Positions 26,322-31,696 of a DNA stretch of 64,000 nucleotides are shown one piece after another. Origin of the DNA: Nannocystales bacterium. Its GTDB lineage: Bacteria > Myxococcota_A > Polyangia > Nannocystales > Nannocystaceae. Location of the stretch: the NCBI GenBank assembly GCA_050633305.1, contig JBOEGF010000012.1, positions 98,385-162,384 of the forward strand. Reading direction: 5' to 3'. Made by a program: the position numbers and the translations under genes. How positions within the stretch are numbered: the first letter of the stretch is position 1; each line of letters begins with the position of its first letter. The notes below the pieces were generated by a model. That model saw only the letters and a list, made by a program, of their open reading frames with translations, made no database searches and had not been told where the DNA came from.

Positions 26322-27290
26322 ATGGATCGTACCCTCGTTCTCGAATTCGTCCGTGTCACTGAAGCCGCCGCAATCGCGTGCTCCCACCTCGTCGGCCGCG
26401 GGCAGAAAGACGCCGCTGACGCGCGTGCTGTCCAGGCCATGCGCCAGGCCTTCGATCGTGTATCGGTGCGAGGAACCGTGGTGATCGGTGAGGGAGAGCG
26501 GGATGAGGCGCCCATGCTCTACATCGGTGAGCAGGTGGGCCCCAAGGACGAGAGCCTCCCCGAGGTCGACATCGCCGTGGATCCGCTGGAGGGCACGAAC
26601 CTGTGCGCCGAGGGTGCTCCGGGGGCGCTGGCCGTCCTCGCGGTGGCTCAGCGCGGTGGGTTGCTCAACGCGCCGGACACCTACATGGAGAAGATCGCGA
26701 CCGGGCCGCTCGGGCACGGCGTCGTCTCGCTCAAGAAATCGCCGACCGAAAACGTCCGTGCGCTCGCCGAGGCCAAGGGATGCAAGGTCAGCGAAATCTC
26801 CGTCGTCGTGCTGGAGCGCGACCGACACGAAGCCCTCATCGGCGAGCTTCGGGGTGCTGGAGCGCGCGTGTTCCTGATCTCCGATGGCGATGTCGCCCCC
26901 GCCGTCGCGACCTGCATGCCCGAGAGCTCCATCGACATGGTCTACGGCACCGGCGGAGCCCCGGAGGGGGTCCTGGCCGCCGCGGCGCTCAAGTGCATGG
27001 GCGGCTGCTTCCATGGCCGACTTCGCTTCCGCAACGATGGCGAGCGTGAGCGCGCGATCAAGATGGGCATGTCGGACCCCGACGCCTACCTCGAGATGTC
27101 GGACCTGGTCAGCGGTGAGGTCATCTTCTGCGCCACCGGAGTGACCTCCGGCCCCATGCTCAAAGGGGTTCGTCGCATCGGAGACCGACTGCACCTGCAG
27201 ACGCTTTCGATGCGCTCCTCGACCGGCACCATTCGCACCGTCGACTCAGTCGTCAGCGCGGCGCGGTTCTCCGAGCTGTACGCGGGGTAG
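26322..27290 (+). CDS. glpX: Class II fructose-1,6-bisphosphatase
   Basis: VTEAAA, GEGERDEAPML, DPLEGT, DGDV, GGAPEGV, ATGVT. Confidence 0.97.
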   Translation: MDRTLVLEFVRVTEAAAIACSHLVGRGQKDAADARAVQAMRQAFDRVSVRGTVVIGEGERDEAPMLYIGEQVGPKDESLPEVDIAVDPLEGTNLCAEGAPGALAVLAVAQRGGLLNAPDTYMEKIATGPLGHGVVSLKKSPTENVRALAEAKGCKVSEISVVVLERDRHEALIGELRGAGARVFLISDGDVAPAVATCMPESSIDMVYGTGGAPEGVLAAAALKCMGGCFHGRLRFRNDGERERAIKMGMSDPDAYLEMSDLVSGEVIFCATGVTSGPMLKGVRRIGDRLHLQTLSMRSSTGTIRTVDSVVSAARFSELYAG

Positions 27291-27381: not shown

Positions 27382-27960
27382 CTACGGCCAGTTGTCCTCT
27401 TCGAGTTCGACGCCGAGCCCGTCCACCACCCGGTTGACGTACGCGAAGTACGACACGACTTGGTTCGCGTCGAGGATCTCAGCATCGCTCATGCCTGCAT
27501 CACGCATCGGCTGCAGGTGCGTCCGCTTCATCTCGGCGGGACGATGTGTGAGGGCCATGGCGTACTCGAGCATCGCCCGCTCGCGGGGCGTCGCCGTTTC
27601 GGGGGACGGACCCTCGCCACGGCCAAAAGCTTCGACCGCGTCCATGATCGCGGTCGCGTTCTCGGGGAGCGTTCGCGCCAGACCGGCGCGATGATGTCGG
27701 ACTCAATAGTGGCAGGCATTGGCCGCCGAGACCGCGACGGCCAGCATCTCGCGCTCCCGCCGAGACAAGCCGCGAGGAGCGTGCATGACGGCGCCGTAGA
27801 GTTTGAGGTGCCCATCGAGCGTCGGCGGTCGCAAGCTGTGAATCTGGATCACATTGTCGACGCGCTGGGTGTGCGGGTCGACCGCGGCCTTGTACAGCCG
27901 TGCGAGCCGTCCACCGGCTTCCATCACTTCGTCTTCGTCGAGAACTTCGATCCAGGGCAT
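27382..27960 (-). CDS. AhpD/CMD-family peroxidase-related protein, probable selenoprotein (CxxU, in-frame UGA at 27703-27705)
   Basis: Track ORFs 27703.. and ..27645 are in one frame: ...LSRREREMLAVAVSAANACHY-UGA-VRHH...SYFAYVNRVVDGLG; SECIS-like hairpin follows the UGA. Confidence 0.85.
27673..27691 (-). promoter_or_regulatory. Bacterial SECIS element
   Basis: mRNA UCGCGCC-GGUCU-GGCGCGA, a 7-bp perfect stem starting 11 nt after UGA; GGUCUG apex as in E. coli fdhF SECIS. Confidence 0.75.
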
Positions 27961-27965
27961 GGCGT

Positions 27966-28700
27966 CTACAGGTTCTGTGCCGTCAGGTCGTCGAACCAGG
28001 TCGCGGCATCGGCCTTGGTCCACAAGCCAATACGCCCGGCGGCCTTCAACGTTTCGTCCTCCGCCACAAGAACCGACTGCTCGTCCATGAATAGTTCCAT
28101 TCGTGTGCCCTCGACGATGACCCGCATCGTGTGCCACTGGCTTGCATCGAGGTCGAGCTCGGCGGCCTTGAACGCACTGCGTTGCTCACCGACGACCACG
28201 TAGAACCGAACGTTCTTCTCCAGGGGGTTCCACCGCGCGATGTAGTAGTCCGTCGCGCCCTGGGCCCGGAAGACGACACCACCTCCTTGGTCCCCGGTGC
28301 CGGAGTCGGCTTTGAGGGAGACGGTGAGCTCGACGTCGGCCGCCTGGAAGCCTGGCGCGAGCGCGACGTTGTACGTCTGGCCCGTGTTCGCGGTGCTCAG
28401 AACCCCGAATCCCTTGCCTCCCGAAGGCGCGGTGGAGTCCTCGACCACCCCCCATTTCGCGGGGGTGCCCGCCGCAGCGGTCTCGAGTAGCTCAAAACCT
28501 CGCGGTGTCGAGCCCGCCGCGCCGCCGTCGAAGGCCCAGCGTTCGAGCGGACTCCCCGTCTTGGGATCGGCCTTCACAGCGGCCTTCGATTCATCGGCGG
28601 AAGCGGGCGGGGAGGCTTCCTGCTTCGGCTTGGTGGGTGTCGCATCCTGGGCGTCGCAACCGAAGGCGACGAGCAGCAAAACGAGGGAAATCGTGCGCAC
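27966..28700 (-). CDS. Lipoprotein with DUF1080/3-keto-disaccharide hydrolase-like (LamG-type) domain
   Basis: Lipobox AFGC; GGGVVFR...YY...WHTMRV...GRIGLWTKAD...FDD. Confidence 0.75.
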   Translation of the reverse strand: MRTISLVLLLVAFGCDAQDATPTKPKQEASPPASADESKAAVKADPKTGSPLERWAFDGGAAGSTPRGFELLETAAAGTPAKWGVVEDSTAPSGGKGFGVLSTANTGQTYNVALAPGFQAADVELTVSLKADSGTGDQGGGVVFRAQGATDYYIARWNPLEKNVRFYVVVGEQRSAFKAAELDLDASQWHTMRVIVEGTRMELFMDEQSVLVAEDETLKAAGRIGLWTKADAATWFDDLTAQNL

Positions 28701-29699: not shown

Positions 29700-30926
29700 T
29701 CAGTGGCGGCGGCGACGTCGGATGCCCAACAAGCCGAGGAACAGCAGCAGGCTGAGCCCGCTGCCACGCCCGCCGACTGTGCACGTGCCCCCGGAGCGAC
29801 CGCCCGTGTCGCTCGCGGGTGCCGTGGTTTCGCCGGAGGTGCCCTCAGCCGCGGTGCCCGAGTCCGTGGTCCCAGCCGTCTGTGGGGTACCGGTGCCTGT
29901 GTCGCTGGCGGAGGACCCGCCCGTGCTGCTGTCGCCACCGCATCCGGGGTTTCCGATGATGCTTCCCCCGGTCTCGTCGCAGCCTCCCGAGCTCCCGGGC
30001 AAGACAATCACCAGCTGCGTCATATGGGCCTCGTACGAGCGGCCCGCGGGGTCTGTGGCGGTGACGCGGATCAGGAGCGTCTCGGTGGCGTAGTCGTCTC
30101 CGGGGACGAAGTCGAGGGTGAACGCTTCTTCGTCCACCGGGACGTTCTCTGCGAAGGAGATCCAGGTCGGCTGCCAGTCGAGCTCGCCACCTTGAGGTGT
30201 GACGGCAAACTCCGCGGTCAAGGTTGTGCCTTCGGCACCCGCGACACAGCCTTCGATGGCGGCCGCGTCGTTGGCGTAGACGATGATCTCGCCGCTGGTG
30301 ACGACCGCCGCTGGGCCCACCTCGTCGGGGTCGCCGTCGTGCACCACCAAGACGTTGCCCGTTCGCTGGCTCCAAATGTTGAACGCGGGCTCCCAGGTGT
30401 AGCCCCACAGGATGTACGCGCCCGCGTTGGCCGAGGAGGTGTCCCACTCGATAGGCTCCGCAACGCTCTCCCAGGAGATCGGCCGCCGCGCGTCGTCGGG
30501 GGTGATCCGAACGAAGTGGTCCGACCAGATTGGGCTGGTCTCCATGGTCTCGTCGGCGCCGACGGTGGTGTCGGCGATTAGCTCCTTGTCGAGCGCGGCC
30601 TGGACGTCCTCCGGGGAGAGCCACAGGTGCGGGTACTCGGATTGCGGATTCCCCTGTCTGGACAGCGCGATGAACTGATGTCGACGAGAGTCGGAGACCT
30701 CGTCGGGCAGGAGTTCTTCACCCGGACTGGGGTCTTCGTCGGGGATGTTGTACGAGAAGCTGTAGACCGGATCTGCGGACCGGTCGACGAACTCGACGCA
30801 CCCGACGGGGGACTCCCACATGACCGGTAGGCGTGGCTTGATGCCGTTCTCCGCAGCCGCCGTGCCCGGCAATAGTGCCGGCGCAAAAAGCGCAGTTGCG
30901 AGCACGAGGCGGTTCGTCCAGACCAT
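29700..30926 (-). CDS. Secreted acidic protein with MYXO-CTERM-like sorting signal
   Basis: Signal peptide; C-terminus GGTCTVGG...LLLFLGLLGIRRRRRH. Confidence 0.8.
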   Translation of the reverse strand: MVWTNRLVLATALFAPALLPGTAAAENGIKPRLPVMWESPVGCVEFVDRSADPVYSFSYNIPDEDPSPGEELLPDEVSDSRRHQFIALSRQGNPQSEYPHLWLSPEDVQAALDKELIADTTVGADETMETSPIWSDHFVRITPDDARRPISWESVAEPIEWDTSSANAGAYILWGYTWEPAFNIWSQRTGNVLVVHDGDPDEVGPAAVVTSGEIIVYANDAAAIEGCVAGAEGTTLTAEFAVTPQGGELDWQPTWISFAENVPVDEEAFTLDFVPGDDYATETLLIRVTATDPAGRSYEAHMTQLVIVLPGSSGGCDETGGSIIGNPGCGGDSSTGGSSASDTGTGTPQTAGTTDSGTAAEGTSGETTAPASDTGGRSGGTCTVGGRGSGLSLLLFLGLLGIRRRRRH

Positions 30927-30960
30927 ACCGACAAGTGTGGGCGCGGTCGCCGACACGCAC

Positions 30961-30989
30961 AAGGCCCCCGCGGATTCCCGCGGAGGCCC
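30961..30989 (-). terminator. GC-rich hairpin after lipoprotein gene
   Basis: GGCCTCCGCGG-GAAT-CCGCGGGGGCC-TTGT on minus strand. Confidence 0.45.
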
Positions 30990-31015: not shown

Positions 31016-31696
31016 TCAGCCGGCGGATGCGCCGCCTGCGAATGCTGCGGTCAGCTTCGCGAGGGCCTCGGCGCCCAGCTTCGGGACGCCCATGACGGTG
31101 GCTTTCGCGTCGCTGATCGACGCCTTGATGTCGGCGTCGAACTTGATGACGAGGTCGAGCTCGCCCTGCAGTTCGGCCTTCTTGTCCGCCTTGAGCAGCG
31201 GGTTGGCCATCTTCGCCTGAATGGAGGCGGTCATCTTGGTGACGATGCCCGCCGCTTTGACGCCCAACTCGGCGAGGTTGGCGGTGGCGGTCTTGGCTCG
31301 GGCTGGCGTCTCTTTGAGGCCTTCGCCGATGCCCGCGATCGTCCCCAGCATGGTCTCGATCTCGGCCTTGGCATCTCCGTCGATGTCGGCGCTGAACTCG
31401 ACCGTTCCGCCGTCGAACTTGGCGCTCGCCATCGCGGTGAGATCCGTGGCGTTCATGCCATAGCGGGTGGGGATGGAGGTGAGCTGGTCAACGACGACGT
31501 CGACATCGGTGATGGGCTGCAGCACCAGATCGATTTCGGCTTGGATTTTTTCGGGGATGGCCTGCAACTCGGCCATCGGGTCCCCGTCTTCTTGGGCAGC
31601 TTCATCCGGGGAATCCGTTCCCTTGTCTTTCTTGGCGCAGCCCAGAGGTGCGAAGGCGAGGGATCCGAGGACGGCAAACGTGATGAGGCGTTTCAT
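31016..31696 (-). CDS. Alpha-helical hypothetical lipoprotein
   Basis: Lipobox PLGC; Ala/Lys-rich helical sequence, strongly biased codons. Confidence 0.85.
   Translation of the reverse strand: MKRLITFAVLGSLAFAPLGCAKKDKGTDSPDEAAQEDGDPMAELQAIPEKIQAEIDLVLQPITDVDVVVDQLTSIPTRYGMNATDLTAMASAKFDGGTVEFSADIDGDAKAEIETMLGTIAGIGEGLKETPARAKTATANLAELGVKAAGIVTKMTASIQAKMANPLLKADKKAELQGELDLVIKFDADIKASISDAKATVMGVPKLGAEALAKLTAAFAGGASAG

Follow-up and report, generated by a model that had tools for sequence, protein, structure and literature searches.

A selenoprotein gene of the catalogued AhpD-like CxxU family, stored in two pieces, in a Nannocystales bacterium

The window analyzed here, a stretch of 64,000 nucleotides from a Nannocystales bacterium, holds on its minus strand, read from 27960 to 27382, a single frame of 192 residues that runs from an ATG at 27960 to a TAG at 27382-27384 and contains one in-frame TGA. 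This frame is the gene of an AhpD-like protein of the peroxidase-related family TIGR01926. The TGA (27705-27703) falls at position 86, in the context NACHY-U-VRHH, and makes the second position of a CxxU motif that aligns with the second Cys of the CxxC motif in homologues of solved structure. In the list of open reading frames, the gene appears as two pieces, one that stops after AANACHY at 27703 and another that begins with MDAVEAF at 27645. The original prediction joined these pieces, which lie in the same frame and are separated by this one TGA, into a 192-residue protein, and our re-reading of the minus strand agrees with it, including the location at 27382-27960; what the prediction lacked was the strand. 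The codons before and after the TGA are used as in coding sequence (values of 0.23 and 0.25), which sets them apart from the two other minus-strand frames (-0.28 and -0.39). The plus-strand reading of 27382-27960 lies in a different frame, does not look coding and was rejected as a gene. The two short neighboring frames are almost certainly one gene in which the internal stop encodes selenocysteine, and the sequence leaves very little doubt that the UGA at codon 86 would be decoded as Sec.

With Sec read as Cys, residues 2-185 of the product score 124.9 bits against the TIGR01926 profile, above the cut-off of 81.8, and Pfam assigns the protein to CMD. The structure model (pLDDT 92, pTM 0.88) is one all-helical domain with the AhpD/CMD fold. 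Its best Foldseek match is Deinococcus DR1765 (6k40; TM 0.83, E 1.4e-9, 34% identity), followed by other uncharacterized peroxidase-related proteins and, farther away, by Bmp8, sestrin 2 and M. tuberculosis AhpD. Five residues, E71, C83, Y85, U86 and H90, are invariant in all 27 aligned rows and map onto the relay Glu118/Cys130/His132/Cys133/His137 described for AhpD (PMC3141380). The proton-relay Glu71 (27748-27750, minus strand) stands 12 residues before Cys83 (27712-27714, minus strand), the first residue of CxxU, as Glu118 stands before Cys130, and the proton-relay His90 (27691-27693, minus strand) follows Sec by four residues, corresponding to His137. In the model, the AhpD-like relay pattern Glu...Cys-x-(His/Tyr)-Cys(Sec)-x3-His is carried by a two-helix hairpin formed by helices 67-80 and 84-95. 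The protein had been predicted to be an AhpD/CMD peroxidase with a CxxU motif; the AhpD-like fold, the TIGR01926 membership and the motif all stand, whereas the term peroxidase extrapolates from them, and the protein may instead act as a disulfide reductase for a partner protein.

The homologue search covered 72 genomes of the order, 38 of which yielded a match at E<=1e-25, giving 44 matches, 30 of them with DNA. At the Sec column, these 30 order-wide loci have TGA in 23 cases and TGC or TGT in 7, and neither TAA nor TAG occurs in any of them. Another 11 loci, drawn from a phylum sample, a GTDB scan and the paralogue in the same genome, add 6 TGA and 5 TGC codons (the GTDB scan for related loci gave 3, of which one, probably a duplicate, was not counted). 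In 11 close homologues, the N-terminal and C-terminal parts resemble the query to a similar degree, with 56-92% identity before the UGA and 50-78% after it. All 114 full-length database homologues read NxCx[YF]C, that is, have Cys at the Sec column, and no protein returned by the database search carried U. The 75 short database hits comprise 42 that end exactly at NxCx[YF] and 33 C-terminal halves with scattered starts, and none of them spans the motif. These fragments bear out the expectation that annotation pipelines split the gene, leaving separate N- and C-terminal halves as database proteins; because the UGA forms are stored in this way, protein searches see only the Cys relatives.

Among the 33 genomes with a TGA-bearing match (the position of the TGA was checked in 23), selA is present in 30; the three others are 64-77% complete and show selB and selD, selD, or tRNA-Sec. 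Five genomes have the Cys form only, three without selA and two with it. Because the genomes are kin and not independent, these co-occurrence counts are descriptive. Two small genomes (G014 with locus L030 and G015 with locus L031), which are 94-95% complete, carry the Cys form; selA, selD and tRNA-Sec were not found in them, and their Rfam hits to tRNA-Sec were rejected as tRNA-Ser. The Cys form in these two genomes is consistent with replacement of Sec by Cys upon loss of the machinery, the tree placement being weakly fixed. Phylogenetic trees cluster the Sec forms and need 2-3 changes between Sec and Cys, and the AU test does not reject one clade of all Sec forms (p-AU 0.283, in a tree from which five near-duplicate loci were omitted and to which 9 database Cys proteins were added).

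Eleven nucleotides past the TGA begins a perfect 7-bp Watson-Crick stem (27691-27685 paired with 27679-27673) that encloses the loop GGUCU (27684-27680), the loop beginning at a distance of 18 nt from the UGA; re-measurement gave the same stem, loop and offset that had been predicted. We assign this element (27673-27691, minus strand) as the upper hairpin of a SECIS on the basis of its geometry, its covariation and its match to formate dehydrogenase. Bacterial SECIS elements are described as having a stem of 4-16 bp, a loop of 3-9 nt with a G in the first two loop positions, and a spacing of 16-37 nt (PMC13188914); the query hairpin, with its 7 bp, its 5-nt loop starting with GG and its 18 nt, falls within these bounds when the spacing is measured to the loop, an end point that we assumed. 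The predicted resemblance to the fdhF SECIS of E. coli was examined on the formate dehydrogenase gene of the query genome itself, whose hairpin has the same 11-nt offset and the same 13-nt core, a match that implies that E. coli SelB may read the query element.

Taken by itself, the hairpin is weak evidence in a genome with a GC content of 66%. Its folding stability is ordinary (z from -0.90 to +0.30 in 5 windows). The exact pattern derived from it follows 6 of 229,155 TGA and 11 of 406,532 TGC triplets genome-wide, such that TGA is not enriched, and a looser, SECIS-like pattern is about as frequent behind TGA as behind TAG (about 3% of either). A search of Rfam gave no match to a SECIS family, and its sole hit, a snoRNA with E 2.3, was dismissed as chance. 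Because both the stability and the genome-wide counts are ordinary, the evidence that goes beyond chance is the conservation and covariation of the element rather than its fold alone.

For covariation we used the 13 UGA homologues with the stem in the +11 register, namely the 12 closest ones and locus L033. In this set, the two sides of the stem are paired in 93.4% of the cells, 5 of the 7 pairs show two-sided, compensatory change, and none of 500 shuffles reaches the observed pairing or covariation score, with slid controls at 21-53% paired; these values come from sequences that are kin and from a structure that was derived from the query. The same columns in 7 Cys homologues are 44.9% paired, which is the shuffle level (383 of 500 shuffles are as high). 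Moreover, the Gly codon in the loop is GGT in all 13 UGA homologues vs 1 of the 7 Cys homologues, GGT making up 14.5% of the Gly codons of the genome. The remaining 10 UGA loci lack the +11 stem, the respective columns being 35% paired, and have a 7-bp stem two codons later instead. In this second Sec subclade (L034-L043, L077), the stem starts 17 nt after the UGA and is 100% paired; 6 of its 7 pairs are invariant and 62 of 500 shuffles score as high, so that covariation says little about this later register. This subclade shares a supported tree branch with the +11-type sequences. Because both register types sit in one supported branch, a comparison of the sequences suggests that the SECIS moved register within the AhpD-like family.

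The genome (11.0 Mb in 90 contigs, 92% complete, with close relatives titled Nannocystaceae) contains selA (397 bits), selB (265 bits), selD (366 bits, with an in-frame TGA of its own) and tRNA-Sec, the product of selC, and its sole tRNA with a UCA anticodon is of the Sec type. The genome also holds a distant Cys-type AhpD-like paralogue of the query (C9:235106-235492, plus strand; L014), with about 28-30% identity. Our screen for other selenoproteins relied on a home-made read-through filter, the first setting of which missed the query gene. It yielded 26 read-through candidates that were scanned for families: 12 match redox families with the TGA at the catalytic position, and 14 were rejected, either for want of a redox-family match at the UGA or as joins of unrelated genes. 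The read-throughs L060 and L064 were discarded as such joins. The 12 additional genes encode formate dehydrogenase alpha, a glutathione peroxidase, three Prx-like proteins, a DsbA-like, an ArsC-like, a SelL-related and a SelW-like protein, and three multidomain thioredoxins. Including SelD and the AhpD-like gene, the genome has at least 14 selenoprotein-type genes (a lower bound; L011, L047-L056, L066), in most of which the UGA is followed at 17-22 nt by a G-containing loop on a short stem.

The multidomain thioredoxins are three paralogous proteins of 577-646 aa (C5:194820-196655 and C5:196652-198592, both on the minus strand, L047; C18:114260-115993, on the plus strand, L048) that have a C-terminal thioredoxin domain of the AhpC/TSA type, a UxxC motif and a SECIS-like hairpin. 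The rest of these proteins consists of a lipoprotein-like N-terminus (identified by eye), propeller-like repeats (with no Pfam hit) and an Ig-like choice-of-anchor D domain. The family occurs in 17 of the 72 genomes of the order, and 31 of its 34 matches hold one TGA (position checked in the source genome). Trx-UxxC is a known class, and the multidomain architecture is not among the entries in Table 1 of PMC13188914; this seleno-thioredoxin family may be more novel than the AhpD-like gene. The genome further contains a small gene (C14:279437-279814, plus strand; L067) with an in-frame TGA (YDAT-U-LG), a hairpin with a GGUC loop and no NCBIfam hit, as well as small extra tRNA clusters (C27:100925-101282, Tyr-Ser-Ser-Ser; C13:26362-26583, His-Gln-Pro; C49:10260-10527, Ser-Ser) that are possibly located on mobile elements.

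The immediate surroundings of the AhpD-like gene carry no functional signal. Only 5 nt upstream lies a gene (27966-28700, minus strand), possibly co-transcribed with it, whose 244-aa product looks exported and contains a PF06439 domain; this neighbor is linked with the AhpD-like gene only within the genus and shows no sign of a shared function. Downstream and convergent, glpX (fructose-1,6-bisphosphatase II; 26322-27290, plus strand) is a neighbor only, and a ROK kinase gene is found in the vicinity as well. Neighbors in the window match only loci of the same genus, similarity of the flanks is confined to close kin, and no redox partner was found among the neighboring genes. Neither a sigma-70 promoter pattern nor a terminator pattern turned up at the locus. 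The sequencing runs listed as containing the sequence include no RNA run, which says nothing about expression. Elsewhere in the window are two genes for exported-looking proteins without a Pfam match, one of 420 aa with a C-terminal sorting tail of the myxobacterial type, identified by eye (29700-30962, minus strand), and one of 226 aa that is lipoprotein-like (31016-31696, minus strand).

The readings that dispense with Sec are hard to reconcile with these observations. If the UGA were a true stop, the locus would either encode two polypeptides, one of 85 aa and a re-initiated C-terminal half, or be a pseudogene. The separate storage of the two halves in databases (42 of the 75 short hits ending at NxCx[YF], the 33 others being C-halves) is what such a reading would lead one to expect, and the codon after the UGA is GTG, a possible start, in 7 of the 23 UGA loci. 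However, that codon is no start in the other 16, including the query, which has GTC; the annotated starts of the C-halves vary widely; and the stop is always TGA, never TAA or TAG. Moreover, termination here would break the active-site helix, separating Cys83 from His90, both halves are conserved, and the hairpin covaries only with TGA, so a true stop appears very improbable. Even less credible, to the point of being negligible, is that a TGC was assembled as TGA or that UGA is reassigned to Trp or Gly genome-wide, as might be entertained for an assembly of 90 contigs and 92% completeness. A contig from a public sequencing run spans 27582-28084 with 0 differences, TGA included; another run, X2, has no coverage of the codon. 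A further 22 genomes of the order have the identical TGA, and they are the better guard against an assembly error because the public contig may come from the source sample. Reassignment is contradicted by the tRNA set, in which a UCA anticodon occurs only in the Sec-type tRNA, and by the use of TGA to terminate ordinary genes in this genome. The original prediction had set four points beforehand as capable of overturning it, namely the presence of the sel genes, the codons at the Sec column, the conservation of the hairpin in UGA orthologues and the integrity of the assembly; the findings on all four leave the reading of the UGA as Sec standing.

A different kind of alternative accepts the insertion of Sec and assigns it to another selenol chemistry, for example reductive dehalogenation of halogenated aromatics, in the manner of the CMD-fold debrominase Bmp8, or detoxification of hypohalous or other electrophiles. 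Bmp8 does match the fold of the query (TM 0.72-0.74, 17% identity), with a distant profile match (E 5.7e-7), the query sequence occurs in a microbial-mat metagenome, and the members of TIGR01926 are mostly uncharacterized. Nevertheless, the profile matches to five peroxidase-related structures are much stronger (E 5e-40 to 6e-29), and no halogenase, biosynthetic or halopyrrole-cluster genes were found among the neighbors, the context being unconserved beyond the genus. We consider such chemistry unlikely. The more specific proposal that the Nannocystaceae subclade is a Se-dependent reductive dehalogenase or electrophile detoxifier built on the AhpD fold, a bacterial functional parallel of the Se-dependent deiodinases and not a peroxidase, seems more doubtful still; if true, it would provide the first biochemical function for the abundant TIGR01926 CxxU selenoproteins.

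The explanation that best accommodates the data is that the gene probably encodes an AhpD-like oxidoreductase of the TIGR01926 family that employs Sec86 in oxidative-stress defense. SelB loaded with Sec-tRNA would bind the hairpin that starts 11 nt past the UGA through its G-containing loop and bring Sec to the ribosome, which would then read through; under selenium shortage, the ribosome would stop after Tyr85. By analogy with AhpD, the Glu71-His90 relay would activate Sec86, which would then attack either a hydroperoxide or the disulfide of a partner protein. Cys83 would resolve Sec86 to a selenenyl-sulfide, and re-reduction would most likely proceed by the lipoyl/NADH route. This route is taken from DR1765, a mutant of which is sensitive to H2O2, with rescue requiring the CxxC motif (PMC8945050); two lipoamide dehydrogenases are present in the query genome. 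The Pseudomonas protein PA0269 is a weak peroxidase only (PMC3141380), and the best-characterized relatives share just 25-34% identity with the query. Given decoding of Sec, a role in peroxide or disulfide redox chemistry is likely by analogy with these relatives, and the protein may serve in the cytoplasm as part of a large set of redox selenoproteins.

No AhpC was detected above the cut-off in the genome, and none is encoded beside the gene; because of this absence, the version in which the protein is an AhpC reductase is weakened, and direct reduction of peroxide or another partner is favored. The prediction that the second Cys of the motif is catalytic applies to M. tuberculosis AhpD, where this residue contacts AhpC, and fails as a general rule: in B. 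thailandensis AhpD, the first Cys was the more important one (PMC6626918), and sestrin 2 keeps and uses only the first (PMC4674687). In the query, Sec took the second position, which suggests that catalysis by this position holds here.

The gene is a real, correctly read selenoprotein gene of an already catalogued CxxU family. The Sargasso Sea survey described AhpD-like CxxU selenoproteins as early as 2005 (27 sequences; PMC1088965), in accord with the statement in the original prediction that such proteins had been predicted elsewhere, and the GOS survey listed 299 sequences as 'AhpD-like 1' (PMC2398784). BSepDB has a family page for the AhpD-like selenoprotein (PMC13326102), and Table 1 of a 2026 review lists 'AhpD-like protein, TIGR01926, CxxU' as 'Predicted with high confidence' and not experimentally verified (PMC13188914), which makes the present gene a convenient test case. 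We found no mention of a myxobacterial AhpD-like selenoprotein in the text of BSepDB or in the literature, and the BSepDB tables may hold such genes; the open literature, as distinct from subscription journals and supplements, yielded neither an assayed AhpD-like selenoenzyme nor a myxobacterial selenoproteome. The novelty that had been placed in lineage and context thus shrinks to lineage, the context being without functional signal. The main value of the present analysis is a correction of annotation, given that public gene callers break the members of this subclade into two entries; in addition, a myxobacterium is shown to have at least 14 selenoprotein genes.

Compared with known systems, the query agrees with the AhpD-like CxxU family (COG2128 / TIGR01926) in scoring above the TIGR01926 cut-off, in the CxxU motif, in the single Sec and in the UGA followed by a downstream SECIS, and differs from it in lineage only. 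CxxU is found in the same helix-turn-helix in NF041238 (CFYUT), NF041047 (GSU3128) and the CMD-like proteins of PF02627; the query lies outside the first two subfamilies, with scores below the cut-off in both cases (54.5 of 175 bits and 16.4 of 110 bits, respectively). With M. tuberculosis AhpD (1knc/1gu9) it shares the proton-relay spacing Glu-12-Cys-x-x-Cys-x3-His, although the topology differs (TM 0.50) and the TIGR00777 profile for this type of AhpD gives 19.1 of 191.95 bits, far below its cut-off. In Pseudomonas PA0269, as in the query, Tyr replaces His132 (PMC3141380). The closest structural counterparts are DR1765 (6k40), 2oyo, 3c1l, 2pfx and 2prr, which have the same fold (TM 0.78-0.83), the same E...CxYC...H signature and both helical halves in one chain, but are only 23-34% identical to the query and have Cys in place of its Sec.
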